In this document: positions 10,781 to 59,966 of the stretch, piece by piece | Numbering within the stretch: position 1 is the first letter of the stretch | How the letters are laid out: every line of letters starts with the position of its first letter | From: Patescibacteria group bacterium | GTDB lineage: Bacteria > Patescibacteriota > Minisyncoccia > Minisyncoccales > UBA10102 | Assembly: GCA_022563395.1 (NCBI GenBank) | Contig: JADFNM010000001.1 | Span: 398,342-462,341 of the forward strand | Length of the DNA: 64,000 nt | Reading direction: 5' to 3' | Program-made: the position numbers and the translations under genes | The notes under the pieces: generated by a model | Told to the model about the DNA's origin: nothing | The model's input: the letters and a program-made list of their open reading frames with translations, nothing else | The model's database searches: none

Positions 10781-11647
10781 TTATACCCCCAGCAAAGTAA
10801 AATACCAATCCACAAGGGTCTCACCCCAGAAAAAGGCAATCAAGGTCCCAAACACCAAAAAGGGGCCAAAGGGTACCTCAGAGCGCATGGTCTTTCTTTT
10901 AAAGAAGATAAGCGCCAAACCAACAATTGTTCCGGCGGCGAATGCTAAACTCATGGCAACAAAAATATTGGGCCACGAAAGAAACAATCCCATAAAGAGC
11001 GCCAGCTTCACATCACCAAACCCCATGGCCCGTCTTTTTGAGAGAAGATAAATTGCCCAAAAAAACCCGGCCGCTCCGAGTCCTGCAAGCAGAGCCTCAA
11101 GAAAACTTAACGAGGTTAAGTTTTCTGCAATCTGAAAATGCAAAAGCAATCGCCAAAGCAATACAAGGCCTATGGCAGGATATAAAATCTTGTCTGGAAT
11201 GAGGAAATGCTTAAAATCATACACAAAAATCACCACAAGGAATGAAACTATAGCCCAAAGATAGGCAACATTGAGTACCTGTAGAAAACTTAACGGGGTT
11301 AAGTTTTCTACGCCTTGTCCCAACCAAGGAATAATTAAATAGAATACTCCAACGAACAATAGGGCGGTGGCAAGCTCTACCAAAGGATACTGTATGGATA
11401 TTGGTTTCCTGCAATATCTGCATTTTCCTTGAAGCAAGGCAAAGCTCGCCAGAGGAATCAAGTCATACCAAGCCAGCGTATGCGAACACGAAGGACAAAA
11501 CGATCTTCCGCGCATCACCGTTACGCCCGTTTTCCTGCGATCGTGAGGAATTGGGCGCAATTTCTGCCGAACTTCCAAGCGGTAGATAAAAGCGTTGAGA
11601 AAGCTTCCCACTGCCAACCCAAAGAAAAACACCACAAAAAAGATCAT
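10781..11647 (-). CDS. pilD: prepilin peptidase (A24 family) / N-methyltransferase
   Basis: 288 aa. It has the CPSCSHTLAWYDLIPLASFALLQGKCRYCRKPISIQYPLVE zinc-knuckle region and a polytopic core with GFGDVKL. Confidence 0.9.
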   Translation of the reverse strand: MIFFVVFFFGLAVGSFLNAFIYRLEVRQKLRPIPHDRRKTGVTVMRGRSFCPSCSHTLAWYDLIPLASFALLQGKCRYCRKPISIQYPLVELATALLFVGVFYLIIPWLGQGVENLTPLSFLQVLNVAYLWAIVSFLVVIFVYDFKHFLIPDKILYPAIGLVLLWRLLLHFQIAENLTSLSFLEALLAGLGAAGFFWAIYLLSKRRAMGFGDVKLALFMGLFLSWPNIFVAMSLAFAAGTIVGLALIFFKRKTMRSEVPFGPFLVFGTLIAFFWGETLVDWYFTLLGV

Positions 11648-11681
11648 TGTTACATTATATCTTATCTTGCCCCTGTGGAAA

Positions 11682-11814
11682 ACTAAACGAGATTTAGGTG
11701 GGGATAACTAAATGAGATTTAAGCAAAACTAAATCGATCCGCCTCAGGCGGACCGATTTAGGAAATAACTGTATTGTTCCTTAATTTACATTAAGGCCTG
11801 CCTGCGCAGGCAGG
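11682..11814. repeat. pile-up of six short palindromic mini-repeats (AT-type CTAAA/CTTAA..TTTAG/TTAAG and GC-type)
   Basis: The six are aCTAAACGAGATTTAGg; aaCTAAATGAGATTTAAg; CTAAATCGATCCGCCTCAGGCGGACCGATTTAG (a GC hairpin nested in an AT palindrome); CCTTAATTTACATTAAGG (11779-11796); and CCTGCCTGCGCAGGCAGG (11797-11814). Confidence 0.85.
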
Positions 11815-11831
11815 AATCATCCACTCAGAAA

Positions 11832-12344
11832 TTATTCACAAACAGCAAGGGTAACAGTTCCTGCGTCAGGTACGCTGTTTCCATCAGCATCTGCTACTTC
11901 CTTTTCAGTCACTCCTCCAGGACCCGTGGCTATAATGGCTACTTGTCCTGCGGTTGCGGCCCGCTCAAGAATGGCATAGGCGCAGTAGTCCTGGTCTGTA
12001 GCTGAGTTGTCAATCCAGGTGTAGGCAGGATTCCCAGAACCCGGATCTGTGGGAACTTTCAGGTACGTTCCAACTGCAGATGGAATGGGAGGAACCTGAG
12101 AAAGATACGCCTCGTTTGCGTTGCAGGTAGAATCGTCATAGCACAGTTCCATTGCGGTGTTAAACTGCCTCATGTCAGATTGTCTGCGTGCGTCTCTCGC
12201 ATTGGCCCGTGCTCCTCCAAGAGATACCAGCACAATACCTGCCAGAATCCCAATAATCGCGATGACCACCAAGAGTTCAATTAAAGTAAACCCGCCTAAG
12301 TTTTTCTTAGAAAAATTTTGGCGGATAAATCCTTTTTGTTTCAT
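11832..12344 (-). CDS. type IV pilin (long leader peptide)
   Basis: [18 protein letters not shown]|[19 protein letters not shown] shows the class III signal with G-1, F+1 and E+5. Confidence 0.85.
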
Positions 12345-12376
12345 TGTTGCGTTCTTGTTACTATAAAAACAGATAT

Positions 12377-12390
12377 CTCGACCTTTCTGT
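12377..12390 (-). promoter_or_regulatory. 14-nt motif ACAGAAAGGTCGAG, 32 nt upstream of the pilin ATG
   Basis: An identical 14-mer at the identical 32-nt distance precedes mini-pilin gene 33639-33995 (34028-34041). Confidence 0.4.
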
Positions 12391-12426
12391 CAAATCCGGT
12401 TCGGGTCGGACAGACACTCTACTAAT

Positions 12427-12484
12427 GTAAATCCTTTTTGTTTCACTGTTGTGTTCTTGTTCTTTAAATGCACAAGCATCAACC
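12427..12484 (-). pseudogene. orphan pilin 5' fragment (leader + first ~7 codons, ATG->GTG)
   Basis: gtaaatcctttttgtttcac tgttgtgttcttgttctttaaatgcacaagcatcaacc is nearly identical to 12961-13020, the start and leader of pilin 12486-12980. No downstream ORF follows. Confidence 0.6.
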
Positions 12485-12485
12485 C

Positions 12486-12980
12486 CTAGAGAGTACAATC
12501 ATTGGTAAACACTCCATTGGTCTCAATTGAATGTAACCCCTCTGCCAGGCTCCCGGCTCCACTCTCCAGCCAGAAACAAATCTGGTAGTCTCCCGTGGTT
12601 GCACCGAGACTTCCGTCAGCCTGACTAATAGAATACTGACAGGTGGCACTAGTACCATTGGCACAGGCTGTCCCTCCGGTTCCAACTGATGGGTCAGCAA
12701 AGTTCACAAATCCTACAATGCTATTATTGCTTGGGCATCCGCTGCACCCCGTACAGGTATTTACCTTGGCATCAGCCAAGACGCATCCTGTCAGTGCCTC
12801 TGGATTGTCTGAGGCCTCAACTTCCAAGGCAGTGGACATTTGCCGTACGTCCGTCACGCGTCTGGCGTCTCTTGCCTTGGCACGAGCAGGACCCAGGGAT
12901 ATAAGAACAATGGAAGCAAGCAAGCCAATAATCGCTATCACGATGAGCAGCTCAATTAAGGTAAATCCTTTTTGTTTCAT
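12486..12980 (-). CDS. type IV pilin, tandem paralog 1
   Basis: MKQKG|FTLIELLIVIAIIG. The start is placed at the internal Met (12980) of the 182-aa track ORF. The C-terminus reads TTGDYQICFWLESGAGSL..IETNGVFT. Confidence 0.85.
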   Translation of the reverse strand: MKQKGFTLIELLIVIAIIGLLASIVLISLGPARAKARDARRVTDVRQMSTALEVEASDNPEALTGCVLADAKVNTCTGCSGCPSNNSIVGFVNFADPSVGTGGTACANGTSATCQYSISQADGSLGATTGDYQICFWLESGAGSLAEGLHSIETNGVFTNDCTL

Positions 12981-13040
12981 TGTTGTGTTTTTGTTCTTTA
13001 AATGCACAAGCATCAACCTTTCAATCGTATTCAAAACAAC

Positions 13041-13526
13041 CTATTCTTCGCATGTGGTAAACACCCCATTGGTTTCAATGGCGTTTAAACCAGATGACAG
13101 GCTCCCGGCTCCACTCTCCAGCCAGAAACAAATCTGGTAGTCGCCCGTGGTTGCAACGGCACTTCCGTCATCCTGGCTAATGGAGTACTGGCAGGGGGCG
13201 GTGGACGGACTTACACTTTGCTGGCAGGCTGCTCCTGCGGTTCCTACTGTGGGGTCGGCAAAGTTCACAAACCCTGCTACTGCTCCGGGGCCCGTGCACA
13301 AATCCACCTTGTGGTCGGCCGAGGTACAGGTTTCTACGGCTTCTGGATTGTCTGAGGCCTCAACTTCCAAGGCAGTAGACATTTGCCGTACGTCCGTCAC
13401 GCGTCTGGCGTCTCTTGCCTTGGCACGGGCAGGACCCAGGGATATAAGAACAATGGAAGCAAGCAAGCCAATGACTGCGATAACAACTAACAGTTCAATT
13501 AATGTAAATCCTTTTTGCTTTTTCAT
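13041..13526 (-). CDS. type IV pilin, tandem paralog 2
   Basis: MKKQKG|[14 protein letters not shown]. The N-terminal ~60 aa and C-terminal ~35 aa are conserved with its neighbours, and the centre is variable. Confidence 0.9.
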   Translation of the reverse strand: MKKQKGFTLIELLVVIAVIGLLASIVLISLGPARAKARDARRVTDVRQMSTALEVEASDNPEAVETCTSADHKVDLCTGPGAVAGFVNFADPTVGTAGAACQQSVSPSTAPCQYSISQDDGSAVATTGDYQICFWLESGAGSLSSGLNAIETNGVFTTCEE

Positions 13527-13584
13527 ACAATCAATGTAAAAAATGATTTTGGCTTTTTTGCCGTTCTGTCAAATCCAAACTGGC

Positions 13585-14058
13585 CTACTGACACGTGGTA
13601 AACACCCCGTTGGTTTCAATGGCGTGCAATAGTGGGCCTCCCAAGCTCCCGGCTCCACTCTCCAGCCAGAAACAAATCTGGTAGTCGCCCGTGGTTGCAT
13701 CGGCCGTCCCGTCTGCCCTACTGATAGAATACTGGCAGGTACTGCCGGAAGCTGACGTACAGGGAGTTCCAGGCGCAGTAGATGAAGGGTCAAGAAAGTT
13801 GCCAAAACCAGCAACCGCACCAGGTCCTGTGCAATCACGCACATTATCATCCAACCCCAGACAACCTTCAATATCTTCCGGATTGTCTGAGGCCTCAACT
13901 TCCAAGGCAGTGGACATTTGCCGTACGTCAGCTACGCGCCTTGCGTCTCTTGCCTTGGCACGGGCAGGACCCAAAGCTACCAATACAATGGAAGCTAACA
14001 TCCCAATGACTGCGATAACAACTAGCAGTTCAATTAATGTAAATCCTTTTTGTTTCAT
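13585..14058 (-). CDS. type IV pilin, tandem paralog 3
   Basis: MKQKG|[14 protein letters not shown], with the same conserved ends as 12486-12980 and 13041-13526. Confidence 0.9.
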   Translation of the reverse strand: MKQKGFTLIELLVVIAVIGMLASIVLVALGPARAKARDARRVADVRQMSTALEVEASDNPEDIEGCLGLDDNVRDCTGPGAVAGFGNFLDPSSTAPGTPCTSASGSTCQYSISRADGTADATTGDYQICFWLESGAGSLGGPLLHAIETNGVFTTCQ

Positions 14059-14124
14059 AGAATATAAATAATATCGACTTTTTTACCGTTTCCTTAATGT
14101 TGAACAAAGTAAAACATCAAGGTT

Positions 14125-14144
14125 CTGAGGGGTTTACCCCTCAG
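14125..14144 (-). terminator. hairpin CTGAGGGG-TTTA-CCCCTCAG after pilin 14170-14661 (weak T tail)
   Basis: 8-bp GC-rich stem 25 nt past the stop. The minus-strand tail is AACCTTGATGTTTTAC. Confidence 0.4.
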
Positions 14145-14152
14145 GTTCTTAT

Positions 14153-14344
14153 TATACTTGACTCAAAGCTTACCAACAAGGGCATTGTCCACCGTTGGGG
14201 CTTCCTGGCAGTCCCGGGTTGTAATCCAGCTTGAGGGAACCTTTTTGTGAACCCGCAAACCAGTCCCCTTCTTCAAGCTGTATGTACACGCAATACAACT
14301 GGCTTGAACAATTGGTAGTCAATGTATTCACGTTGTCTATCCAG
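14153..14344. repeat. 192-bp segment identical to 53586-53777 (pilin 3' end + 17 nt downstream)
   Basis: Base-by-base comparison by eye found no mismatch. Identity stops abruptly at 14345/53778. Confidence 0.9.
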
Positions 14345-14661
14345 AGGTAGGTACTCCCTTGAGGGTCTTTTGGGGTTGGGTCTAAGTACTTGCCGTCATC
14401 TACACCATTGCAGGCTGGGGGATTGATGCAGGGAATCTTTGAAGGAAGAGAGGATCCTGCAATCTGGGAGTACAGCTCATCATCCGAATAATCCAGCTCC
14501 ATTGCAAGCGTTATCTGTCGAATGTCAGACTGGCGCCTAGCATCCCTGGCCTTTGCCCGTGCTCCCCCCAGGGACACTAAAATACTGGAAGACAAAATGC
14601 CAATGATAGCTATTACCACCAAGAGCTCAATTAAGGTGAATCCTTTCTGCTTTTGAGACAT
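14170..14661 (-). CDS. type IV pilin (candidate major pilin)
   Basis: MSQKQKG|[18 protein letters not shown]. It is the first pilin after pilC, is followed by a hairpin, and ends in Cys-rich ..GGQCPCW. Confidence 0.9.
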   Translation of the reverse strand: MSQKQKGFTLIELLVVIAIIGILSSSILVSLGGARAKARDARRQSDIRQITLAMELDYSDDELYSQIAGSSLPSKIPCINPPACNGVDDGKYLDPTPKDPQGSTYLWIDNVNTLTTNCSSQLYCVYIQLEEGDWFAGSQKGSLKLDYNPGLPGSPNGGQCPCW

Positions 14662-14673
14662 TGGTTTAGTATA

Positions 14674-15912
14674 TCAAAGAGAGCCTAGTTGATACAGGGG
14701 CAGCAGGACCGAAGCCAACAATCCCCCCACAATCAATCCTAAAAACACAATAAGGGCTGGCTCAATGATGCTGAGGAATGCTTCCACGGTGCGATCAACC
14801 TCTTTTTGGTAAAAGGAAACAATGTTGGACAGGGTTTTGTCTAGGCTCCCTGATTTTTCTCCCACAAACACCATTTGGGTGAATACGGGAGGAAACTCTG
14901 CGGGGTACTTTTGCAGCACGGTGCTTATTTGGTTTCCCTTTTGTACCTCACTCTTTGCCTCCTCAATAATTTCTGTATACACCGAGCTTCCCACAATACG
15001 CCCGGTGATATCCAGGGCCTGGACAATGGGAAGGCCTCCTGAAATTAAGGTGGAAAGGTTTTCTGCAAAGCGTGAAAGATAAATCATTCGCAAAAAGGAA
15101 TTCAAAAGCGGGACCTTAAGATAAAACCTGCTCAACAACCGTGTTCCCTCAGGAGTGCTTTTCCAGCGAAGGAAAAAGAATACAGCTCCCCCCGTCAATA
15201 AGAGAAAGACCCACCAGAACGCTCGAAACAAAGTGGCTAAAGTAAGAACAAACTGGGTGACGGCAGGAAGTTCCTGGCCCGTTTGCTCCAATACTTTGGT
15301 TAAGTTGGGAATAACAAAAAACATGAGCAAGGCTAACACCGTAAAGGACAGAAACACAATAAAGGCAGGATACACCAAGGCAGAACGAATCTTTGAAACT
15401 AAGTGGTACTCTCGCTCCATGTGGTCAGCTAAATACTCCAGCACAGAAGACAGGGTTCCTGATGCCTCCCCTGACTTTACCATGTTAACGTAGAAGGGGG
15501 AGAAAATATCAGGGTACTTTGATAGGGCTTTTGAAAACAGAGTTCCGCCTTTCACCTCTTCTGACAGGCGAAAGATTTTTTCTTTAAATGTTCTACTCTT
15601 GGTTTGGGAAGCTAGGGTCTGCAAGGCCTCTACCAAAGGTACGCGAGAAACAAACATGACAGATAACTGTCTGGAAAACATCATAATATCTCTCATGGAA
15701 ACCCGCTCAAAAAACCGGATGTTCCGTTCAAAGAGTGGGCGTGCCTCTGCTGCCTCAAGAAACGTGACAAACAGATTATGGGCCGCCAAGAGCGACAAGG
15801 CAGCTTCCCTGGAGGAAGCCTCAATCACGCCAGACTGCGTTTTGCCTTTGTTGTCTTTGCCCTGGTAGTTGAATTTCATCCCGTTAGAGATAAGAAATGT
15901 TCTGCGGAACAT
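14674..15912 (-). CDS. pilC: type IV pilus platform protein (GspF/PilC family)
   Basis: 412 aa with two GspF-type repeats and three TM segments. The likely true start is MKFNYQGKD at 15879. Confidence 0.9.
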   Translation of the reverse strand: MFRRTFLISNGMKFNYQGKDNKGKTQSGVIEASSREAALSLLAAHNLFVTFLEAAEARPLFERNIRFFERVSMRDIMMFSRQLSVMFVSRVPLVEALQTLASQTKSRTFKEKIFRLSEEVKGGTLFSKALSKYPDIFSPFYVNMVKSGEASGTLSSVLEYLADHMEREYHLVSKIRSALVYPAFIVFLSFTVLALLMFFVIPNLTKVLEQTGQELPAVTQFVLTLATLFRAFWWVFLLLTGGAVFFFLRWKSTPEGTRLLSRFYLKVPLLNSFLRMIYLSRFAENLSTLISGGLPIVQALDITGRIVGSSVYTEIIEEAKSEVQKGNQISTVLQKYPAEFPPVFTQMVFVGEKSGSLDKTLSNIVSFYQKEVDRTVEAFLSIIEPALIVFLGLIVGGLLASVLLPLYQLGSL

Positions 15913-16013
15913 TTCTGTAATTCATTGATGCAACCATAGAACCCTTGGTGCTTTTCTTTGTGTGAATAATAAAGTTTGCAAACATAGATATAATAATCTC
16001 TAACGGGATTCAT

Positions 16014-17078
16014 TTAGTTTCTTGCCAGAGTTCTGAGTTCTGTTGGGTTCAAGGAGTAGGCAAGGGCATTTTCTAGGGTGATGGTCTTTGAACGAACCAA
16101 GTTTGCCAAGGCCCGGTTCAAAGAAATCATGCCAATTTCAGCAGACGTCTCAATCACCAGGGGAAGCTCGTGAATCTTGTTTTCTCGAATGAGGTTGGCT
16201 ACCGCAGGGTTGGACATCATGATTTCAGCTGCGGGAACCAACCCGCCCCGCACGCTGGGAACCAAGCGCTGAGATACCACGCCCAACAAAGAACCTGACA
16301 GCTGCGCCCTGACCTGAACCTGCTGCGCTGGAGGAAAAGAGTCCACAATGCGGTGAATGGTTTGGGCGGCAGAGTTGGTGTGCAGTGTGGCAAATACCAG
16401 GTGTCCGGTTTCAGCTGCGGTGATGGCGGTGGCTATGGTTTCTGAGTCTCGCATTTCCCCTACCATGATACAGTCTGGGTCTTGGCGGAAAGTGGCGCGC
16501 AAGGCCTTTTCAAAACTCTGGGTGTCCTGATACACCTCTCGCTGGTCAATAATCGACTTGTCGTCTTCAAACACGTACTCGATGGGGTCTTCAATAGTAA
16601 TGATGTGGTCGGCTCTTGTGTGGTTAATCTCGTCAATCAAGGCAGCTAGGGTGGTGGATTTCCCATGGCTGGAAGGACCGGTAATCAATACAAAACCCTG
16701 GCGTGCAGTGGCAAACTTATGAAGTATGGGAGGAAGGTTCAATTCTTCCAGCGTCTTTATCTGCTTTGGGATAAGGCGCAAGGCAGCAGACAAAGAACCC
16801 TGCTGGTAAAACACGTTTATTCGGAACCTGGCCTTATCCTCCATGTTGTACGAAAAGTCCACCTCTTTTTCCTGTTCCAAGCGTACTTTTTGTTCTTCGG
16901 TCATCAAGGAGGTGGCGAGTTCTCTAACGAGGTCTTGTGTCATGGGTCTCTTTTTGACCAAGGGAACCAAGCTCCCTGCAATTCGAAGGGTCGGAGGATG
17001 CCCCAAAGACAAATGTAAATCAGAAGCCGCTTCTTTTACAGTCAGTTCTAATAATTCCTGCATTTGTGTGGTTGGCAT
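16014..17078 (-). CDS. pilT: twitching-motility retraction ATPase
   Basis: 354 aa with Walker A (GPSSHGKSTT), the Asp box, Walker B (DPDCIMVGEMRD) and the His box (GHLVFATLHTNSA). Confidence 0.9.
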   Translation of the reverse strand: MPTTQMQELLELTVKEAASDLHLSLGHPPTLRIAGSLVPLVKKRPMTQDLVRELATSLMTEEQKVRLEQEKEVDFSYNMEDKARFRINVFYQQGSLSAALRLIPKQIKTLEELNLPPILHKFATARQGFVLITGPSSHGKSTTLAALIDEINHTRADHIITIEDPIEYVFEDDKSIIDQREVYQDTQSFEKALRATFRQDPDCIMVGEMRDSETIATAITAAETGHLVFATLHTNSAAQTIHRIVDSFPPAQQVQVRAQLSGSLLGVVSQRLVPSVRGGLVPAAEIMMSNPAVANLIRENKIHELPLVIETSAEIGMISLNRALANLVRSKTITLENALAYSLNPTELRTLARN

Positions 17079-17130
17079 ACAGTTACATTGTTAAATTGTT
17101 ATATGGCTAAATGGCTAACAATTAAACAAT

Positions 17131-17508
17131 TTAACCATTTAACAATTCTTTTACCTCCTCTACTACCTGGGTGGGGGTAAAGTGAGCTTTAATCAGGTAG
17201 CGGTCAGCGCCAAGAGAAATTCCTTTTTCAATCTCTTCTTTTTGCCCAAGGTTAGAGAGTACTACAATCTTTGTGTTCCGCAAGTTTTCTTGTTTTTGAG
17301 CGGCTAGAAGCAATTCCCAGCCGTCCACATGAGGAAGCACAATGTCCATGACAATGACCGAAGGGCTCAGCTTAGAAAACAAGGAAAGCGCCCTTTCTCC
17401 AGAATCTGCCACCTGCACCTTAAATCCAGCTTCTGTAAACTTTGTGGTGTAAATATCAATCAGCAAGGGGTCGTCTTCAACGAGTAAGATAGTATCTTTG
17501 GGGGACAT
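17131..17508 (-). CDS. stand-alone response-regulator receiver (CheY/PilH-like)
   Basis: 125 aa with ILLVEDDPLL, VIVMDIVLPHVDG and VVLSNLG. No output domain, and no histidine kinase in the window. Confidence 0.85.
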   Translation of the reverse strand: MSPKDTILLVEDDPLLIDIYTTKFTEAGFKVQVADSGERALSLFSKLSPSVIVMDIVLPHVDGWELLLAAQKQENLRNTKIVVLSNLGQKEEIEKGISLGADRYLIKAHFTPTQVVEEVKELLNG

Positions 17509-17509
17509 A

Positions 17510-19240
17510 TCAGTCTTCGGTCACGCGAATAACCTCCTCTATTGTTGTTATACCATCAATTGCCTTTAACACGCCATCCTGACGAAGCGTGACCATGCCC
17601 TGGCGCACTGCTTCTTTTGCAATGTTTGCTTCAGACGGAGTTTGAAGAACAATGTCTGAAAGCTCGTCGGTCATTGTAAGCACCTCAAAGAGACCAATCC
17701 TACCACTGTATCCTGCGGCTCCACATTCTTTGCATCCTTTGGCAACAAACAAACTCAGGTCTTTTCCTTTGGTTGCCAGGTGCACGCTCACGGATTTTTC
17801 TTTGGCAGCAGGAATCTTTCTGAGTTCTTGCAAGATGAGCTCTTTCATTTCCGTTTTTGGCTTGATGCGTTCCTTGCAATTATCGCACAAGCGTCTCACC
17901 AAACGTTGGGAAAGGGCAATGTTAAGCGTGGTTGGAACCAGGTACTTGTCCACTCCCATGTCCAAGAGACGAGGGATGACGCCAGAAGCATTGTTCGTAT
18001 GCAAGGTGGAAAGCACAATGTGCCCTGTTAAAGCAGCGTGCACAACAAGGGAGGCCGTCTCTTCGTCTCTAACCTCACCTACCATGATAACGTCTGGGTC
18101 TTGGCGCAGAACCTGGCGTAACCCTTGGGCAAAATCGTATTGAATATCGGGCCTAACCTGGGACTGGTTCACGCCTTCCAAAAGATACTCCACGGGGTCT
18201 TCCAAACTCACAATGTTCAAGGATTCCTTGTTAATACTCTGGAGCATGGCATACAGGGTGGTGGTTTTTCCAGAGCCCGTGGGCCCAGTCACCAAAATCA
18301 ACCCAAAGGGGCGTTTCAAAGCCGCTTGTGCTTTCTCTAAACTGGAACCTCCCAAACCAAGCTCGCCAAAACCCTTTAACCCCACTTCAGGGTCTAAAAC
18401 ACGTATGGCAACCTTTTCTCCTAGGGCAGTGGGAAAAGTGGAAACACGAAAGTCTATAGAGCGCTCTCCAATGTTTGCAGAAAATCTCCCATCCTGTGGT
18501 ACTCGCTGCTCATCAATCTTTAAGTTGGAAAGAATCTTAATGTGCGACACCACGGCTTGGTGAACCCGTTTTGGCAAGAATAAAGAGGAGTACAGGTCCC
18601 CCAGCATGCGAAACCTTACTCTGAGTTTGTCTTTGGTGGGTTCAATGTGAATGTCAGAGGCCTTCCCTTCAACCGCGTTTCTCAAGATGACTGCCACCAT
18701 CTTGGTGACCGGGGCCTCCTCCACCAAACGAGCGAGTTTTTGAGCTTGGTCCTTGCCCTTTTCTTCCTTCATCTCTTCTTGGAGTTCTCCTAAGGCCTGG
18801 CTCATATCGTTCTTTTGGTTTTGATAATGGCGCATGACTGCAGCAAACTGAGAAACAGAGATGAGCTGTATCTGAAACGAAAACCCTCCCTGGCGAGACA
18901 GGAAGTTCAGCGCCTCCTTTGCTTTTACGTCCTCCGGGGCTACCATACCAACCTCAACCACTCCTGCCCGCTTAGACAAGGGAACCATGCGATAGTGAGA
19001 TGCCGCATCCTCGGGGATAAGCTCAAGAATCTTTAAGGGAATGTCTTTGGGCTCAACAGATCTCAAAGGAACCTGCAGTCCCTCTGATTTAACGCTAAAC
19101 AAGAGCTCTTCTTCCACAAGCTTCTTTTCCAAGAGTACTTCCTCAACCAACTTTTGGGACCGAGTTGCCTCCTCTTGGACTTGGGTTGCGGCCTCGCTTA
19201 AAAGAAGATTTCTCTGAACAAGGGTTTGAAGAATGTTCAT
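17510..19240 (-). CDS. pilB: type IV pilus assembly ATPase (GspE/PilB family)
   Basis: 576 aa with an N-terminal T2SSE_N-like domain, Walker A (GPTGSGKTTT) and the CxxC..CxxC tetracysteine motif (CDNCK..CKECG). Confidence 0.9.
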   Translation of the reverse strand: MNILQTLVQRNLLLSEAATQVQEEATRSQKLVEEVLLEKKLVEEELLFSVKSEGLQVPLRSVEPKDIPLKILELIPEDAASHYRMVPLSKRAGVVEVGMVAPEDVKAKEALNFLSRQGGFSFQIQLISVSQFAAVMRHYQNQKNDMSQALGELQEEMKEEKGKDQAQKLARLVEEAPVTKMVAVILRNAVEGKASDIHIEPTKDKLRVRFRMLGDLYSSLFLPKRVHQAVVSHIKILSNLKIDEQRVPQDGRFSANIGERSIDFRVSTFPTALGEKVAIRVLDPEVGLKGFGELGLGGSSLEKAQAALKRPFGLILVTGPTGSGKTTTLYAMLQSINKESLNIVSLEDPVEYLLEGVNQSQVRPDIQYDFAQGLRQVLRQDPDVIMVGEVRDEETASLVVHAALTGHIVLSTLHTNNASGVIPRLLDMGVDKYLVPTTLNIALSQRLVRRLCDNCKERIKPKTEMKELILQELRKIPAAKEKSVSVHLATKGKDLSLFVAKGCKECGAAGYSGRIGLFEVLTMTDELSDIVLQTPSEANIAKEAVRQGMVTLRQDGVLKAIDGITTIEEVIRVTED

Positions 19241-19512
19241 TATAGGGGGGGGAGCAATGGGTTGTCTCGACCAACATCCTGGGGAATTTGCGCTTTTGCC
19301 TCTGCCTCATCTAGTTTTTGGAGTATTGGATGGGAGAGAATGGAGGTATCCACCTCAACCCTGAGGGGCTGGAGAAGGATGTCGCCTGTGGGGAAAGGGG
19401 CTGTCACAAAGAATCCCCACCAGATGACAACTGCGGTAATAAAGACCACTACCCCAAGCGCGAGAATGAGGAGGCGTTGAATCTTCTTTTTCTGGAGAAA
19501 CGTTACTGCCAT
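19240..19512 (-). CDS. small membrane protein of the pilus locus (unknown)
   Basis: 90-aa ORF with a single TM (LLILALGVVVFITAVVIWWGFFV). Its stop overlaps the pilB start. Confidence 0.5.
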   Translation of the reverse strand: MAVTFLQKKKIQRLLILALGVVVFITAVVIWWGFFVTAPFPTGDILLQPLRVEVDTSILSHPILQKLDEAEAKAQIPQDVGRDNPLLPPL

Positions 19513-19530
19513 ATGTGGTTCATATGTTAG

Positions 19531-20046
19531 CTAGTAGAAATAGGTATGAAGCTGCAAAGTTACATTGAACCTTTCGGTCTCTTGGCTCCCAGAAAGGTTC
19601 AGGGATTGAAGAGAAACCATACGAGAAGCGATATTCAAACGTCCCGTCAGTTCTTTTAAAGCACTCCAGGAACCTACAAGCTCAAGTGTCACAGGAATGG
19701 TGCGTAGCTCTAAGGATTGAGCTTGGCTCTCCACTGCAGCTGAAATGTTGCGCAAGGACATTCCAGAAAGTGCGGAGCTCCGCTGCAAAAAGTCGTAGAG
19801 CGAGGGAAGCTGGGGGCCTAAGGGAAGGGCGGCCTCAACCTTTAAAAGCCCTTCTGCAAACTCCGCAAGGCTTGCCTTAACCTTTATCAAATCTGCAAAG
19901 TAGGTTTCCCGGTTTTCCAGCTCTTGCTGGCGGCCTTTAAGTTCAGACCTCAGCTGCTGGAAGGTCTGATAGTTGGGCCAGGTTAAGAAGATGCCTACGG
20001 CAACTCCTATAAAGAGCAGGATTCCAATGAGAAGGGTGCGGTTCAT
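19531..20046 (-). CDS. pilO: PilO-like pilus assembly protein
   Basis: The start is placed at the internal MNRTLLIGILLFIGVAV (20046), which abuts the pilN stop. TM plus coiled coil (QQLRSELKGRQQELENRETYF). Confidence 0.65.
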   Translation of the reverse strand: MNRTLLIGILLFIGVAVGIFLTWPNYQTFQQLRSELKGRQQELENRETYFADLIKVKASLAEFAEGLLKVEAALPLGPQLPSLYDFLQRSSALSGMSLRNISAAVESQAQSLELRTIPVTLELVGSWSALKELTGRLNIASRMVSLQSLNLSGSQETERFNVTLQLHTYFY

Positions 20047-20047
20047 A

Positions 20048-20572
20048 TTATTGAAAGAATGCGGCTGAAAATTGTATTTCCATTTGAAAGTCAACCCCGC
20101 CCTGTCCCCCAAGCTTAAGATTCGTCAGGGAAATGGAGCCTGGTTCTGACCGTGCTTCAAGCACCACAAGCTGTTCATCTAGGGCAGAGAAGGATTCTGC
20201 AGTTCCCCTAAGCTGCACAGTGTGGCTTTGCACATCAACATTCATTGAAAGAAAGGTGACCTCGGGATGTACCACGTTCTCCAAGAAAGAGAATGCGGGA
20301 AGCACGTCCTTTCGAAGCTCTACCAGTGTTGCAAAATCTTTAAGCCTGGTTCGTGCAACAAACATGTCTTGCTCCAGCTGTGCCTGCTCTGGGGTCTTTT
20401 CTGTTCTCAAGAGTATTTCTGCCTCTTTAATCTTGGTTTGAGTTCTTGATTCCAAGAAAAACAAGAGTACAAATCCTCCCACCGAAAGCACAAAGACACC
20501 AATGGACAAGGCAAAGAACACCCTCATGAACAAAGAGGAAGTTTGAGGCACTTTGGGAATGATTTCTACCAT
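20048..20572 (-). CDS. pilN: PilN-like pilus assembly protein
   Basis: 174 aa with a short cytoplasmic N-terminus, one TM and a periplasmic domain. It sits between pilM and pilO. Confidence 0.6.
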   Translation of the reverse strand: MVEIIPKVPQTSSLFMRVFFALSIGVFVLSVGGFVLLFFLESRTQTKIKEAEILLRTEKTPEQAQLEQDMFVARTRLKDFATLVELRKDVLPAFSFLENVVHPEVTFLSMNVDVQSHTVQLRGTAESFSALDEQLVVLEARSEPGSISLTNLKLGGQGGVDFQMEIQFSAAFFQ

Positions 20573-20578
20573 ATATAT

Positions 20579-21631
20579 TTACTCCAGTCCTCGTAATGCC
20601 ATTCCTACTGCGACGCAGTACGAGGGCCCCATCTCTTTTATTGTATCTTCCAACACAGGAGGATAAAAGACAGAACGAAAAGGATCAACGAATTCTATCT
20701 CTTTCTTCAGGCTCTCTTTTAAGTATTCTCTGAGCCCCGGTAGCATTGCGGACCCTCCTCCGAGAACCACCCGTTGAATTTCCTTTTCTCTGAATTCTTG
20801 GATTGCTCTTTGGATTTCCGTCACCACGGTGTCTATCAGAGGACCTAATATAGTCTTGAGTTCTTTTGACAAAAGTCCTTCGGCTATTTTCTTCTCTTCT
20901 GCTTCTTTTCGGCCAATAGACAAGGATTGCGCAATGCGTTCTGAAAGGTTTCCCCCACCAATATCAATAGACCGTGAAGACTGCAGCACTCCTTTTTTAA
21001 CCACATTAATAGTTGTGGTTTGGGCTCCCATGTCCAGCACCACAAGGGAACCTTCTCCATTTTTCAAAGAAGAGCGGATAAGACCAAAAACTTCTGCCTC
21101 TAGAGTTTGAAGCCGCAGCTTGGCCAACTTTGCTATCTCTTGATACTGATTGATTAGCTCGTTGGGGACTGCCACCATTAAAATCTTAATAGGTTCCTTT
21201 GGCAGACCAAGGCGCTTCTTGTTTAAAATCTGCCAGTCAAAGGTCACTTCAGAAAAGGGAATGGGGATGTGTTTTCTCGCCTCGTACTGAACTGCTTCTG
21301 GCAACTCCTCTTTGGTCATCGGAGGAAGCTCAAAGTGTGTGAAAAAGGAAGAGAAGTCCGGAATGGAGAATACCGCGTTCTTGGTCTCAATCTTTGCTTC
21401 CTGCAAAATGCCGCGAAGGGATCTTGCAATGTCTTTTGAAGAAAGGAGCAGGGAACTCTTTTCTGCTGTTCGAAACGGTTTGTCATACAGCATTTCAGAC
21501 CGCATCTCTCCATAGTTCTTCAAGCTTTTTTTTGCGCCCCACCGAGAAAGCTCCACCACCTTAATGGTTGAAGTTCCGATGTCAATGCCAAGAAAGCTTT
21601 TGGGAATAAATTTGAAAGAACCAAGCTTCAT
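20579..21631 (-). CDS. pilM: PilM, actin-like ATPase of the pilus inner-membrane complex
   Basis: 350 aa with LGIDIGTSTIKVVEL, LDMGAQTTTINVV and VLGGGSAMLPGL (ASKHA fold motifs). Confidence 0.85.
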   Translation of the reverse strand: MKLGSFKFIPKSFLGIDIGTSTIKVVELSRWGAKKSLKNYGEMRSEMLYDKPFRTAEKSSLLLSSKDIARSLRGILQEAKIETKNAVFSIPDFSSFFTHFELPPMTKEELPEAVQYEARKHIPIPFSEVTFDWQILNKKRLGLPKEPIKILMVAVPNELINQYQEIAKLAKLRLQTLEAEVFGLIRSSLKNGEGSLVVLDMGAQTTTINVVKKGVLQSSRSIDIGGGNLSERIAQSLSIGRKEAEEKKIAEGLLSKELKTILGPLIDTVVTEIQRAIQEFREKEIQRVVLGGGSAMLPGLREYLKESLKKEIEFVDPFRSVFYPPVLEDTIKEMGPSYCVAVGMALRGLE

Positions 21632-21802
21632 ATATACTCGCTACAGCTCGTTATTCCTTCTGGAATATACTCCCTGCAACTCGTTATTCCTTCTGGAATA
21701 TACTCCCTGCAACTCGTTATTCCTTCTGGAATATACTCCCTGCAACTCGTTATTCCTTCTGGAATATACTCCCTGCAACTCGTTATTCCTTCTGGAATAT
21801 AG
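21632..21802. repeat. 33-bp tandem repeat x5 (CTCGTTATTCCTTCTGGAATATACTCCCTGCAA) abutting the pilM start codon
   Basis: Unit starts are at 21647, 21680, 21713, 21746 and 21779, with degenerate partial copies at both ends. Each unit contains the inverted repeat TATTCC-TTCT-GGAATA. Confidence 0.95.
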
Positions 21803-23292: not shown

Positions 23293-25377
23293 ATGCAGCT
23301 AACCACTCCTCTCTCTGAAGTTCCACGCATTGGGCCGGTCTACCAGAAGCGACTGAAAACAATGGGGATCACAACTTGCCGTGATCTTCTTTTTCATTTC
23401 CCCAGAATGTATCACGACCTCTCTACCATCACTCCCATTGGAAAAGCAAAGGAGGGTTTTGAATACTGCTTTCAAGGAACCTTGGGAGAGCTTCAAGAAA
23501 TGAGAACATACAGGAAAAGAATATCTGTTGTAGAGGGGGTACTAAGCGACAAAACAGGGAGCATAAAGGTGGTGTGGTTTAACCAGCCCTATCTCAAAGA
23601 CACCCTGTCTTTAAGACAGGAGGTGTTTCTTGCGGGAAAGGTGGTTCGCGACCAAAATGGTATCCATCTTCAAAGCCCAGCGTATGAGAAAATGAGTAGA
23701 AACCCCATTCACATGGCAAGACTCGTTCCCGTGTACCAAGAAACCAGGGGGGTATCTTCAAAGTGGTTGCGCTTTGTCATTCATATGGTTTTAGACTCTC
23801 TTAAAAACATTCAAGACACACTTCCTTCATCCCTACTAAAAGAACGGGGGTTTCCTTCACTCAAGGATGCCTTGTTTTCTATCCACTTCCCAAACAATCC
23901 AAAAGACGCACAGCTCGCAAGGAAACGCTTTTCCTTTGAAGAACTCTTCTTCATTTCTTTGTTTGTCTTAACAGAACGAAAGAAACTTTCTGAAGTAAAG
24001 GCCCCGGTGGTTGCTTATGCCCCAGATATCATGAAGCGCTTCACCTCAAAACTCTCTTTTGAGTTGACCGACGCACAAAAGAAAGCTGCCTGGCACATCT
24101 TGAAAGATATGGAAAAGCCAAGACCAATGAACAGAATCTTGCAAGGGGATGTGGGTTCTGGGAAAACCGTGGTAGCTGCCATGGCCTCTTTGGCTGCAGT
24201 AAAGGCGGGGTATCAGGCTGTACTTATGGCTCCAACAGAGGTTTTAGCCCAGCAGCACTTCAAGACCGTGGGGGAATCACTGGCACTCTTTCGCATAACC
24301 ATTGGCCTTTTAACCGGAAAGACAGACCGATTCATTTCTCCTAAACTTCCCAATGATTCCATTGAGATCTCACGAAAGAAGCTTTTAAAAAGAGTCAAAG
24401 AAGGAACCGTTGACGTTCTCATCGGCACCCACGCCTTAATTCAAGACAAGGTAAAGTTCAACAACCTTGCCTTGGTTATTATTGACGAACAACACCGCTT
24501 TGGCGTACAGCAAAGAAAAAAGCTTCAACACAGATCACAGCTCATTCCTCACTTTCTTTCCATGACCGCAACCCCCATTCCAAGAACGTTGGCAATGAGC
24601 GTGTATGGGGATTTAGACCCCACGATTATTGACGAGCTTCCCAAGGGAAGAAAGAGGATTGAAACCAAGATTGTGGCGCCAGAAGAACGGGCAAAGGCAT
24701 ACAAGTTCATTGCAAAAGAAGTGAAAAAGGGAAGACAGGTGTTTGTGATTTGTCCTCGCATTGAGAAAGTAGAAGAAGGAGAGAAATCAGAATTGAAGAC
24801 CGTAAAAGAGGAGTATGAAAAGCTCTCAAGGGATGTATTCCCTGGCTTTGAAGTTGCAATGCTCCATGGGAAAATGGGGGCGCCAGAAAAAGAACAAATC
24901 ATGCGGCGCTTTAAAAGAGGGAAAACAGACATTCTTGTTTCAACATCGGTTGTAGAGGTGGGGGTGGATATTCCCAATGCCTCCGTCATGATGATTGAGG
25001 GCGCAGACAGGTTTGGGTTGGCCCAACTCCACCAGTTTCGAGGAAGAGTGGGGAGGTCTCGCTATCAATCATACTGCCTCTTGTTTTCAGAATCCAAAAG
25101 CGCCGCAACAAAACAACGCTTAAAAGCTTTACTTGAATCTGAGAACGGATTTCAACTAGCAGAGAGAGACTTAGAGCTCCGCGGCCCGGGAGACTTTTCT
25201 GGAAACAAGCAATGGGGGCTGCCTGACTTTGCCATGAAAAACTTGGCAAACCTTCCCTTGGTTCAAGAAACTAGGGAGGCAGCAGAAAAGCTTTTAGAAC
25301 AAGACATCTCTCTAAAAAACCACCCCTTACTTAAGAAACGAGTAGAAGAGCTCCGAGAGAAGCTGCACTTGGAGTAA
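23293..25377 (+). CDS. recG: ATP-dependent DNA helicase RecG
   Basis: 694 aa with a wedge domain followed by helicase motifs GDVGSGKT, DEQHRFG and SATPIPRT, then QLHQFRGRVGR. Confidence 0.9.
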   Translation: MQLTTPLSEVPRIGPVYQKRLKTMGITTCRDLLFHFPRMYHDLSTITPIGKAKEGFEYCFQGTLGELQEMRTYRKRISVVEGVLSDKTGSIKVVWFNQPYLKDTLSLRQEVFLAGKVVRDQNGIHLQSPAYEKMSRNPIHMARLVPVYQETRGVSSKWLRFVIHMVLDSLKNIQDTLPSSLLKERGFPSLKDALFSIHFPNNPKDAQLARKRFSFEELFFISLFVLTERKKLSEVKAPVVAYAPDIMKRFTSKLSFELTDAQKKAAWHILKDMEKPRPMNRILQGDVGSGKTVVAAMASLAAVKAGYQAVLMAPTEVLAQQHFKTVGESLALFRITIGLLTGKTDRFISPKLPNDSIEISRKKLLKRVKEGTVDVLIGTHALIQDKVKFNNLALVIIDEQHRFGVQQRKKLQHRSQLIPHFLSMTATPIPRTLAMSVYGDLDPTIIDELPKGRKRIETKIVAPEERAKAYKFIAKEVKKGRQVFVICPRIEKVEEGEKSELKTVKEEYEKLSRDVFPGFEVAMLHGKMGAPEKEQIMRRFKRGKTDILVSTSVVEVGVDIPNASVMMIEGADRFGLAQLHQFRGRVGRSRYQSYCLLFSESKSAATKQRLKALLESENGFQLAERDLELRGPGDFSGNKQWGLPDFAMKNLANLPLVQETREAAEKLLEQDISLKNHPLLKKRVEELREKLHLE

Positions 25378-32218: not shown

Positions 32219-32743
32219 TTACGTTACAATGCTCCGCAAGATAGCGGGGAATCCTGCTGCCATCAAAGCAATGGCAATGCCAATTAAGGCATAGATGAGC
32301 TTTTGTCTTGCACCCGAAACTTGTGCAGGATCCCCTCCTCCAGTCACAAACTGGAAGGCAGCCAAGACAATGTAGATTAAAGATATTGCCAGAAACACGG
32401 CAAAGACCCAGTTGGCAATGATTTGAATACGAGCAAGTATTGCGCCACCAGATTGTGGCACTTCACTCTCTGTTCCAAGACGGAAATTAGCTGGGGGAAT
32501 TTCGCCCGTACCTGAATTACAATCAGCCTTTGTTGCGTACACGGCACTCTTTGAAGCTTTGCAATAATCGCCTGCTTTTGCAGCAACACCTCCACATTCG
32601 CAGTCCGCTGTAACCGCTGCCTCACAATTACCTCCACCTACTGTGCTACACTCCGCCGCAGCAAAAACTGTGGCTGGAGCCAATAAGATCAGTAAGAAAA
32701 CTGCAAGAAAGAAAGTGAGGCCAATAGTTTGTATTCTTTTCAT
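32219..32743 (-). CDS. TrbC/VirB2-like mini-pilin paralog 5 (signal peptide, Cys-rich ectodomain, two C-terminal TM helices)
   Basis: 174 aa. The C-terminus reads ANWVFAVFLAISLIYIVLAAFQFVTGGGDPAQVSGARQKLIYALIGIAIALMAAGFPAILRSIVT. Confidence 0.75.
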   Translation of the reverse strand: MKRIQTIGLTFFLAVFLLILLAPATVFAAAECSTVGGGNCEAAVTADCECGGVAAKAGDYCKASKSAVYATKADCNSGTGEIPPANFRLGTESEVPQSGGAILARIQIIANWVFAVFLAISLIYIVLAAFQFVTGGGDPAQVSGARQKLIYALIGIAIALMAAGFPAILRSIVT

Positions 32744-32747
32744 AGCT

Positions 32748-33179
32748 TTACGTCACAATGCTTCGGAGAATCGCAGGGAAACCGGCAGCCATTAAGGCAA
32801 TGGCAATTCCTATGAGAGCGTAGATTAACTTTTGGCGAGCTCCTGACACCTGGGCAGGATCCCCTCCTCCAGTCACAAACTGGAAGGCAGCCAAGAGAAT
32901 GTAGATTAAAGATATTGCCAGGAATATGGCAAAGACCCAGTTTGCGATAAGACCGATACGGCCAAGAATTTCTGAACCTGAACTAGGTGCCTCTTCGGTG
33001 GTTCCAAGGCGAAAGCTGGTATCTGGTAGTTTGCTCTCATTAACACAAAGTCCGCCGCTACAAATGAAGCCAGTGCCGCACTCAGCGTTTGTGGTGCAAC
33101 TGTCTCCCTCTACAGCAAACACAGCAACTGGAGAGAAAATGAGCACAAAAAGGAAGATTATTCCCAAAAGTATTTTCAT
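32748..33179 (-). CDS. TrbC/VirB2-like mini-pilin paralog 4
   Basis: 143 aa. The last 47 aa are identical to paralog 5, but the codons differ. Confidence 0.75.
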   Translation of the reverse strand: MKILLGIIFLFVLIFSPVAVFAVEGDSCTTNAECGTGFICSGGLCVNESKLPDTSFRLGTTEEAPSSGSEILGRIGLIANWVFAIFLAISLIYILLAAFQFVTGGGDPAQVSGARQKLIYALIGIAIALMAAGFPAILRSIVT

Positions 33180-33212
33180 ACTATTGCCAAATATGCGTTC
33201 AAACTCGGCCTC

Positions 33213-33632
33213 TTAGGTTAATATACTTCTTAGCACATCATCTACCCCGTTGGCAAGGAGGGCAAGCCCAATGCCAATAATGGCATAGAGGAGACGCCTC
33301 TTGGCAGAAGAGACCTTTTCTGGGTTTCCCTCACCTGTTACGAACTCAAACGCCCCCCAAACGAGAAAGATAATAGAAATTGCAAGAAAGATGGCAAAAA
33401 CCCATTCTCCAACCCGTTGAATAATCTGTAGGACAGCTCCTGCCGTCTGGGGACCCTCTGGTAATTCTGCCAAGCACTCATTACTTATACTGCATGTCAA
33501 TCCAGAGTTACACGTTCCTCCGGGTCCGCACGGCTCTCCGAGTCCCTGTGCAAACACAGACCCTCCTGCCAGTACAAAAATAAGGAGGGCTGTTCCAATC
33601 CCAAAAAGTAAAATATACCTTGCGGGTTTCAT
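33213..33632 (-). CDS. TrbC/VirB2-like mini-pilin paralog 3
   Basis: 139 aa with GEWVFAIFLAISIIFLVWGAFEFVTGEGNPEKVSSAKRRLLYAIIGIGLALL. Confidence 0.7.
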   Translation of the reverse strand: MKPARYILLFGIGTALLIFVLAGGSVFAQGLGEPCGPGGTCNSGLTCSISNECLAELPEGPQTAGAVLQIIQRVGEWVFAIFLAISIIFLVWGAFEFVTGEGNPEKVSSAKRRLLYAIIGIGLALLANGVDDVLRSILT

Positions 33633-33638
33633 TAAGCT

Positions 33639-33995
33639 TTATCCTACCAGAATATTCCTCAAAATATCGTCAAAACCTGCAGCCAAGAGAGCAATGGCAA
33701 TTCCTACTGCAGCATAAATGAGCTTTTGGCGCGCCGCAGTCACCTGGGCCGGGTCACCACCACCGGTCACAAACTGGAAGGCAGCCAAAATAATATAGAT
33801 GATTGACATTGCCAGGAAAATGGCAAAGACCCAATTGCCAATTAAGGCAATGCGGTCAAGCAGGTCAGCTCCCGTTTGTGGGCCTTCAGGAAGCCCATTG
33901 GTAGGGTGTTCTCCTCCATGAACAGCCATTGCTACCGGGGCTCCCACCATGACCAGCAGACTCACCGCTAGCATAATACCAAATACTATTTTCAT
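33639..33995 (-). CDS. TrbC/VirB2-like mini-pilin paralog 2 (no Cys-rich region)
   Basis: 118 aa with GNWVFAIFLAMSIIYIILAAFQFVTGGGDPAQVTAARQKLIYAAVGIAIALL. Confidence 0.7.
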   Translation of the reverse strand: MKIVFGIMLAVSLLVMVGAPVAMAVHGGEHPTNGLPEGPQTGADLLDRIALIGNWVFAIFLAMSIIYIILAAFQFVTGGGDPAQVTAARQKLIYAAVGIAIALLAAGFDDILRNILVG

Positions 33996-34027
33996 TCTTT
34001 TTGTTTATTGCTTCAATTATGTGAAAC

Positions 34028-34041
34028 CTCGACCTTTCTGT
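34028..34041 (-). promoter_or_regulatory. 14-nt motif ACAGAAAGGTCGAG, 32 nt upstream of the mini-pilin ATG
   Basis: It matches 12377-12390 exactly in sequence and in distance to the start codon. Confidence 0.4.
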
Positions 34042-34064
34042 ATCATAGCACCAAATGGGAATTG

Positions 34065-34502
34065 TTAAAACCCTATGATAGCCCGCAAGACCACAATCAG
34101 TCCTTTAGCCAGCAAGATAATCACAAATCCTACCGCAGTCCATAAAAGAATACGCTTGGCAGTAGAGATGCGCTCTGGGCTTCCTCCTGCCGTTACAAAC
34201 ATAATACCTGCCACCACTATCATAAGAGGGGTTAACAGCAAGGCAAAGTTAAAGAGAATGTCAAGAATGTTGTTTACAATACCAGTGAAGTTCTCGGTTT
34301 GAAGAGGATTGCAGATTTGAATCGTATCTTTTTCTTGGCACAGTCCCTGTGCTCCCTCCACAGCTCCCTGACAGACCAGATCTCCATCACAATTTGCATC
34401 CGTCTCACAAGCACCACACACCGGAGCAGCGTCTATTCTTTCAACAAAGCTTCCTCCAAACAAGAAAGCTATAAACACAACCAAAATCAGGGCCTTTTTC
34501 AT
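34065..34502 (-). CDS. TrbC/VirB2-like mini-pilin paralog 1 (most divergent)
   Basis: 145 aa with a signal peptide, a Cys-rich region (CGACETDANCDGDLVC) and LLLTPLMIVVAGIMFVTAGGSPERISTAKRILLWTAVGFVIILL. Confidence 0.65.
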   Translation of the reverse strand: MKKALILVVFIAFLFGGSFVERIDAAPVCGACETDANCDGDLVCQGAVEGAQGLCQEKDTIQICNPLQTENFTGIVNNILDILFNFALLLTPLMIVVAGIMFVTAGGSPERISTAKRILLWTAVGFVIILLAKGLIVVLRAIIGF

Positions 34503-34646
34503 ATTAGGTCATTGTACTTGGGAGGATAAGGTATAGCAACAGGGTTATCCACAATCCCAAAAACCTCCCGGCACCATTGACATATTGACGAATTATGATA
34601 TATTTCTGCACATAGAGAAAGAACAGAGAAAGAGGGGTGCAGCACA

Positions 34647-53367: not shown

Positions 53368-53585
53368 AGTTTCAACTGCTTGAAACTTCACGGATTTGCG
53401 CGCCCCGAGTCCCCGAGGGGCAATAATGCAAATCCTGGTCCTGCTTTGGAAAACTGCTGAAAGCAAATCGTTTTTCAAAGCAGGTACCAAAAAAAACAAA
53501 AAATAGCTCAGACATGAAGCTGTTTTTTGTTAGTGCCCAGGGTGTACTATTAGACCTCCGAAGTCTAACACTCCTACGCCTTATT

Positions 53586-58860: not shown

Positions 58861-58893
58861 GGTTTAAAGCAGAATTTATTGCAATTGACTTAA
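58855..58893 (+). CDS. micro-ORF L2, MAGLKQNLLQLT
   Basis: Same upstream unit (TATACT..AGAAGA..ATG). The body lies outside the repeat. Confidence 0.25.
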   Translation: MAGLKQNLLQLT

Positions 58894-59955: not shown

Positions 59956-59966
59956 GTCAGATAGTC

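Follow-up and report, generated by a model that had tools for sequence, protein, structure and literature searches.

The locus analyzed here raises the question of why a pilin gene and a distant membrane-protein gene share a perfectly identical 3′ end, whereas the homologous sequences just upstream are clearly diverged. In the window (the whole 64-kb stretch of DNA that was analyzed), direct string comparison of the assembled sequence revealed an exact match of 193 nt between positions 14152-14344 and 53585-53777. The two copies are located at the 3′ ends of two genes carried by the minus strand 39 kb apart: gene A, which encodes a type IV prepilin, and gene B, which encodes a 492-aa membrane protein. 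Most probably, this identity is a recent ectopic gene-conversion tract from gene A to gene B, acting on a homology that would result from the earlier insertion of a pilin head into gene B. According to this explanation, a recent non-reciprocal homologous recombination, for which we propose a RecA-type mechanism, would have replaced the 3′ end of gene B with a copy of the homologous 3′ end of gene A. The 64-kb window contains no recA gene but only recG (23293-25377).

The tract comprises the third base of codon 106 of gene A, its codons 107-163 (57 sense codons), the TAA stop codon and 18 nt of 3′ flank. The base-for-base equality of 14153-14344 and 53586-53777 announced by the original prediction thus withstands exact alignment and string comparison, and even extends one base further. 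The content given for it (58 codons, a stop and 17 nt of flank) needs to be amended, since the figure of 58 codons holds only when it includes the stop and the identical flank is one nucleotide longer. Upstream of the tract, homology between the two genes reaches 14562 in gene A and 53998 in gene B, at the codons for DARRQ. As also predicted, identity is lower there: these ~220 nt are 82-85% identical, with indels that sit in the loop just before the tract break. Ungapped comparison gives 84% over 207 nt and codon alignment 85.2% over 63 codons, with 16 codons differing only by synonymous changes and 10 by nonsynonymous ones. In gene A, this diverged part (14345-14562, minus strand) encodes the alpha1-C helix and the variable middle of the head, whose identities with gene B are 80.6% and 82.4%, respectively. 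Its counterpart in gene B (53778-53998, minus strand) probably originates from an older transfer of an A-type head, as suggested by the alignment and by five polarised sites described below.

Both borders of the tract are sharp. The 5′ border coincides with an indel-rich hypervariable loop (DPQG..Y.W) and the 3′ border with the end of the shared flank. Past this latter border, a 1-nt indel is followed by six matching bases (14146-14151 and 53578-53583, minus strand), beyond which no homology is found. In gene A, these last six bases are within a TATAAT-containing motif conserved in the intergenic region between this gene and the next pilin gene. A GC-rich hairpin (14124-14145, plus strand) starts exactly where the A/B homology ends and lies inside a spacer insertion specific to the A locus; this spacer (14059-14169), which separates gene A from the following pilin gene, is 111 nt long compared to 36 nt in the L004 and L005 loci. 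Scans for promoters and terminators around both loci did not exceed the level obtained with shuffled sequences.

Gene A (14170-14661, minus strand; MCH7828676.1) is a genuine type IV prepilin gene. Its 163-aa product has a canonical N-terminus, MSQKQKG/FTLIE (the slash preceding position +1), with a short leader ended by a glycine, a phenylalanine at +1, a glutamate at +5 and a hydrophobic helix. It matches PF07963 (E = 2.9e-10, 39.7 bits for a cut-off of 21.2) and TIGR02532 (E = 1.7e-9). Its AlphaFold2 model (pLDDT 86.6) displays the lollipop fold of pilins, with a helix at residues 10-61 and strands at residues 124-145. When this model was compared to the PDB, 11 of the 13 top matches were pilins or pseudopilins (PulG, an ETEC T4b pilin, GspG, PilA1), with weak E-values of 0.06 to 2.3. 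The gene belongs to a complete type IV pilus operon (10781-21631, minus strand), identified by Pfam, that includes pilM (20579-21631), a pilN-like gene, pilO, pilB (17510-19240), a response regulator gene, pilT (16014-17078), pilC (14674-15912), gene A, four further pilin genes and a prepilin peptidase gene (Peptidase_A24, 10781-11647). Gene A is therefore the first of five pilin genes that follow pilC. Two other features of this operon deserve mention. Directly upstream of pilM, at the operon head (21632-21801), a 33-nt unit (ATATACTCCCTGCAACTCGTTATTCCTTCTGGA) is repeated head to tail about five times with 96% identity, and could be a regulatory or copy-number-variable element. Within the tandem pilin genes 2 to 4 (12486-14058), a conserved-variable-conserved pattern is found at the DNA level, with 90-98% identity for the N-terminal ~60 codons, 33-57% for the central part and 95% for the C-terminal block; it suggests that local homogenisation may occur there too.

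Gene B (53603-55081, minus strand), characterized by family search, head classification and modelling, has a quite different architecture. In its AlphaFold2 model (pLDDT 84.5), a three-helix N-domain is followed by a helical membrane domain, a last transmembrane (TM) helix (309-341), a low-confidence linker (341-354), an alpha1-C-like helix (354-389) and a beta sheet. Together, the helix 354-389 and the sheet form a pilin-like helix and head. The pilin-like module is preceded by about six TM helices. The last TM helix and the N-terminal helix of pilins align residue for residue, including the phenylalanine at +1. However, the prepilin cleavage motif is absent (...RRKKAT/FIIIGILG) and no N_methyl match was found. 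Since it has a threonine at -1 and a glycine at +5, gene B does not encode a cleavable prepilin. Considering the predicted topology, with a cytoplasmic N-domain and seven TM helices, the head should face outward. The fold search with the whole model retrieved CysZ as best match, with a weak E-value of 0.044, and no pilin, because the membrane domain dominates the model. The product of gene B has no Pfam match at E ≤ 0.01 and shows a weak YciC/UPF0259 similarity (NF002774, 21.8 bits for a cut-off of 227).

Several hundred relatives of gene B were found in Patescibacteria metagenomes, many of them with precomputed UPF0259 (PF06790) matches. In the majority of the ~423-aa proteins of the family, the C-terminus is formed by a short GspG-like head (...IQVGLEIYYSEQNKYPFSLNEL...KCVTSQF). 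Of the 120 best hits, just two have an A-type head, namely the window's gene B and P0001, which are 85% identical, and a few others possess a different pilin-like head, a non-pilin domain or no head. The description of gene B as a chimeric membrane-protein gene in the original prediction is thus borne out, since most members of its family carry another head and since, as shown below, a related species retains the displaced native head downstream of the gene. An HMMER search with the B head among 1.84 billion representatives gave 216 matches, of which 147 were retrieved. Forty-seven of these 147 proteins have at least 230 aa; all but one of the 47 (46/47) lack the GFxxxE prepilin motif, most carry the head at or near their C-terminus and five have a B-type N-domain. 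These matches show that the head carried by gene B is a widely shuffled module, found on many different anchors. To see whether the heads of B proteins generally match a pilin of the same cell, the head of P0037 was used as query; the only free pilin retrieved was 54% identical, and P0037 itself was not among the matches. No mention of the B family (pilin helix and head located behind a multi-pass membrane domain, without cleavage motif) was found in the literature that we searched. Two repeats were also detected in gene B, both absent from its orthologue in the related species L003: (i) an imperfect 54-nt tandem duplication (53957-54064, minus strand; SLNSAGETTRDARSQSDL / SLNLARETTRDARRQADI) of the sequence encoding the junction, located at the 5′ recombination anchor and corresponding to the low-confidence linker 341-354 and (ii) a 9-nt sequence repeated 3.7 times (54104-54136), encoding GILGILGIL in the last TM helix.

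The origin of the A/B homology was clarified by L003, a locus from a related species (~87% nucleotide identity) that is syntenic to that of gene B and where the B orthologue (B′) is followed, as in the window, by a gene of 161 aa, nrdR and a ribonucleotide reductase (RNR) gene; the rbfA/IF-2 side is beyond the covered part of L003. In L003, an A-type spacer, TGAGTTTTGAGTCAAGTATAATAAGGCAACGGTGAAAAGTCGATATT, comes after the stop codon of B′. Indeed, the spacer that separates gene A from the following pilin gene (TATAAT...AACGGTAAAAAG-ATG) is conserved in seven syntenic pilin loci, and the L003 flank also matches the window's own A-to-next-pilin spacer (AACGGTAAAAAAGTCGATATT). The 3′ flanks of both gene B and B′ carry the motif AAGTATAATAAG(GC)AACGGT..AAAAG, which is conserved downstream of gene A in the seven syntenic pilin loci. 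Just past the A-type flank, L003 (positions 1520-1747) harbours an intact but untranslated native head of 75 residues (VDIKQIQRGLKIYYSEHDSYPFSPNELSSKYLPNVSVDPSTNQSYQYQLQPDGRDYKVCTQLESTKTQKCVTSQF, with its stop), 72-80% identical over 74 residues to the C-terminus of standard 423-aa B proteins and ending at the same residue. The 3′ junction of the insertion is located at GTCGATATT.

The presence of an A-type spacer in B and of a native head displaced downstream in L003 shows that the ancestral swap ran from the pilin locus to B. A piece of pilin locus, from the sequence encoding the A head through its stop codon to the spacer that precedes the following pilin gene, was inserted into B at the codons for ...ARDARRQxDIRQI, a stretch common to pilins and to the B family, and pushed the native short GspG-like head of B out of the reading frame. 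This swap dates back to an ancestor common with the L003 species. The homology that allows conversion between genes A and B would thus itself derive from this insertion. In gene B of the window, the A-type flank is retained over its first ~24 nt, whereas tblastn found no match to the native-head relic in the window, L003:1509-1830 having no counterpart there; from this comparison, the window lineage has lost the relic since then. Downstream of other head-swapped B members (L035-L039), no native-head relic was found, and it was seen in L003 only. The L003 relic (1520-1747) is flanked by imperfect direct repeats of DI(R/K)QI codons, and recombination between them would restore the original B gene.

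To reconstruct the subsequent exchanges, genes A and B of the window, B′ of L003 and gene A of L040 were compared, with four more distant pilin loci as outgroups, by a four-point analysis with 1000 bootstraps on three adjacent segments. In the alpha1-C segment (14530-14470), gene B groups with B′ of L003 (bootstrap 99.6%). In the middle segment (14469-14345), B′ of L003 groups with gene A of the window (98.9%; 84.6% with gene A of L040). In the tail segment (14344-14173), the window sequence groups with gene A of L040 and not with B′ of L003 (96.3%). Three adjacent segments therefore give three conflicting trees, with bootstraps of 96-99.6%. Furthermore, at five polarised sites of the middle segment, gene A of the window, gene A of L040 and B′ of L003 share a derived state whereas gene B of the window keeps the state of the outgroups. 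The A and B copies would thus have swapped sequences repeatedly, by different tracts in different lineages. The simplest history would comprise three steps: (i) a single ancestral insertion of the pilin-locus piece into B, attested by the shared junction, (ii) a later exchange from pilin to B over the middle segment in the L003 lineage and (iii) a very recent conversion from pilin to B over the tail in the window lineage, so that gene B and its relatives would have undergone at least three exchanges.

As regards the latest tract, identity by itself is silent on direction. A small probability must be left to the same mechanism working in the opposite direction, in which the tail of B would have overwritten that of A and gene B would be a donor of partial pilin sequences similar to pilS. 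The head copy of gene B is indeed devoid of pilin 5′ end, like silent pilin cassettes, and the window tail groups with B′ of L003 in 3.7% of the bootstrap replicates. However, it groups with the stand-alone pilin gene of L040 in 96.3% of them, which argues that the recent tract ran from A to B, the copy at 53585-53777 being the likely recipient. This comparison covers 172 sites, of which a single one is a polarised synapomorphy, and a single close orthologue of each gene (L040 for the pilin and L003 for B). The residues encoded by the tail had seemed to hint at a transfer from B to A, since the 20 stand-alone pilins first examined all carry GGKCPCW whereas A and B of the window and B′ of L003 carry GGQCPCW. 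This hint was dropped because a closer free pilin (P0392/L040) also has the glutamine as well as GSLKL, the other residues supposed to be typical of the B lineage. A search of genome contigs with the head alignment identified eight loci, one per genome, none of these genomes carrying both A and B and the genome of the window not being among the species representatives, and a scan of metagenome contigs identified 23 loci, none of which came from the L003 sample.

Before an A-to-B conversion is accepted, it should also be considered that the identity could be an artefact, the assembler having collapsed or copied one version of two tails that truly differ, or having mis-joined the contig at the repeat. 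The source is a metagenome-assembled genome, the coverage of an independent assembly is just ~5x according to its contig names and the 193-nt repeat exceeds common k-mer sizes. De Bruijn-graph assemblers may also pop bubbles in near-identical repeats, which can erase isolated SNPs and hide a few true differences. However, in this independent SPAdes assembly (ERZ24945681 from ENA), separate contigs cross each copy into unique flanks on both sides: NODE_6098 extends from pilB through gene A to 275 nt past the tract and NODE_399 crosses gene B. These two contigs show a single mismatch with the window, 2 nt from a contig end. The break of the pilin contig occurs 275 nt further on, in the tandem-pilin repeat and not at the tract. 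In addition, the proteins A and B are found on three contigs each, the tract borders (hypervariable indel loop and end of the shared flank) are biologically sensible and another species (L003) shares this gene architecture. Misassembly is thus unlikely, and the whole artefact hypothesis retains only a very slender probability. A few SNPs may have been hidden by bubble popping, but their restoration would leave a step from ~83% to ~98% or more, so that the conclusion would not be affected.

The hypothesis that no exchange occurred, the 57 C-terminal codons being strongly constrained in both paralogues, is exceedingly improbable. At the protein level, no part of the head is better conserved than the tail. 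However, such a constraint leaves synonymous sites free, and none of the 57 codons of the tract differs at the third position compared to 16 of the 63 codons upstream (P ~ 6e-8). The two copies show no synonymous and no non-coding difference within the tract. As the 18 identical bases of the flank are non-coding and beyond the reach of protein constraint, the latter cannot account for the pattern. Nor does the tract appear to be a constrained nucleic-acid element: the Rfam scan found only tRNAs, none of which overlaps it, and no other nucleic-acid element was found there. Moreover, the tail does evolve in relatives, with 3.5-19% of its sites differing among orthologues. It differs from that of gene A of L040 at 6 of 172 sites (for a locus 92.6% identical) and from that of B′ of L003 at 14 of 172 sites (for a locus ~87% identical). 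Chance was evaluated by random placement of the 46 differences in the 421 aligned columns: none of 200,000 permutations gave an identical run of at least 191 columns, the maximum being 118, and the analytic estimate for such a run is ~4e-11. Both chance and protein-level selection are therefore excluded as explanations of the identical tract. Taken together, the lack of synonymous and non-coding differences, the evolution of the tail in relatives and the conflicting trees fit only with a recent non-reciprocal exchange. The view of the original prediction, which considered the sharp switch from diverged to identical sequence as the signature of a recent gene conversion, is thus supported by the permutations, the synonymous sites and the segment trees. 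A diversity-generating retroelement, already dismissed in this prediction, or another targeted mutagenesis of the diverged part, suggested by nothing more than a variable region adjoining a constant one, has practically no probability, since the substitutions are not adenine-specific but concern all base classes (C>T 10 and A>N 14 of 42) and since a search of the window ORFs of at least 120 aa revealed no reverse transcriptase, transposase or integrase.

Ectopic gene conversion, which leads to concerted evolution between dispersed bacterial paralogues, is classically illustrated by tufA and tufB of Salmonella. The case of genes A and B, as we interpret it, is similar in being non-reciprocal, in concerning paralogous stretches carried by the same strand tens of kb apart and in producing a tract with sharp borders within an older diverged homology. 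However, one partner is here a pilin gene and the other is the 3′ module of a gene encoding a polytopic membrane protein, and the homology itself would have been made by an earlier insertion of pilin-locus DNA. The mechanism is of a known kind, a textbook ectopic gene conversion between paralogous segments, and its general significance is modest. The pilin head in a membrane-protein gene, the relic in a sister species and the repeated independent tracts are new details and not a new principle.

The antigenic variation of Neisseria pilins by pilE/pilS recombination (PMC3547852, PMC3899283, PMC4023411) offers another point of comparison. In both cases, conversion involves the sequence encoding a variable pilin head and a distant partial copy devoid of pilin 5′ end, and homology does not end at the stop codon but continues in a shared 3′ flank. 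However, a Neisseria-like pilS system is not supported here. Whereas pilS cassettes are silent, untranslated, promoterless and usually several, the copy found here is translated, in frame within the 492-aa gene B, and is the only extra head copy (two in total) in the 64-kb window. The probable direction is also opposite, from the expressed pilin gene to the partial copy. Furthermore, the expressed pilin gene of Neisseria is preceded by a sequence that forms a G-quadruplex (G4), whereas a scan of the window did not identify any G4 motif near either locus, the only G4-like motifs being at 19804 and 41421, with the nearest one ~5 kb off. The operon of gene A, which includes pilB, pilT, pilC, pilM/N/O and a prepilin peptidase gene but no secretin gene, resembles the type IV pilus gene set described in CPR bacteria (PMC6744442). 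The B family differs from the pilins described in these bacteria by its pilin helix and head fused behind a multi-pass membrane domain and by its lack of cleavage motif.

Several implications can be drawn from these results. They attest, directly at the sequence level, to active homologous recombination between dispersed paralogues in a small genome of uncultivated Patescibacteria. They also give a stepwise view of the replacement of a surface-protein domain, in which an insertion at an anchor encoding a shared helix leaves a displaced relic and is followed by repeated homogenisation. In addition, this work draws attention to a widespread undescribed family in which a multi-pass membrane domain precedes a pilin helix and head, and the presence of such heads on many anchors (46 of the 47 long representatives lacking a prepilin motif) bears on the annotation of "pilins" in these genomes. 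The type IV pilus is central to the epibiotic life of Patescibacteria. It is conceivable, although rather doubtful, that the B family is a membrane-anchored and non-cleavable pilin mimic whose exposed head would be kept matched to the major pilin of the cell by recurrent conversion, or else that it serves for head switching. As a mimic, it might act as a partner of the pilus base or of pilus assembly, as a sensor of the pilin pool or as a surface decoy, with a putative benefit for gene B of a head resembling the pilin of the cell. In the second case, the B copy and the native head that is silent in L003 could form a reservoir from which heads are switched. If true, either possibility would bring a new accessory component into the type IV pilus of Patescibacteria, together with a new mechanism that keeps this component in step.

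Other repeated or unusual sequences were observed elsewhere in the window. A second cluster of tandem paralogues (32219-34502) includes three repeat copies, two of which show 69-80% DNA identity to the reference copy, and three of its four scanned genes match T4SS_pilin (PF18895, TrbC/VirB2-like), one of them below the curated cut-off. Close to this cluster, an ORF encoding collagen-like GXY repeats (34647-35645, plus strand; PF01391) carries 27-nt tandem units at 34743-34915 and overlaps an ORF of the opposite strand (34504-34962). A palindromic motif (CCTTAATGAAATTAAGGATTCCTTAATTTCATTAAGG) recurs in intergenic DNA at 41158, 46283, 48517, 58645 and 60045. Finally, two 233-nt copies that are 88% identical (58642-58874 and 60042-60274) bracket a SIR2-like gene (58927-59985), which adjoins genes encoding a restriction enzyme of the ScaI type and a DNA methylase (60381-61792).
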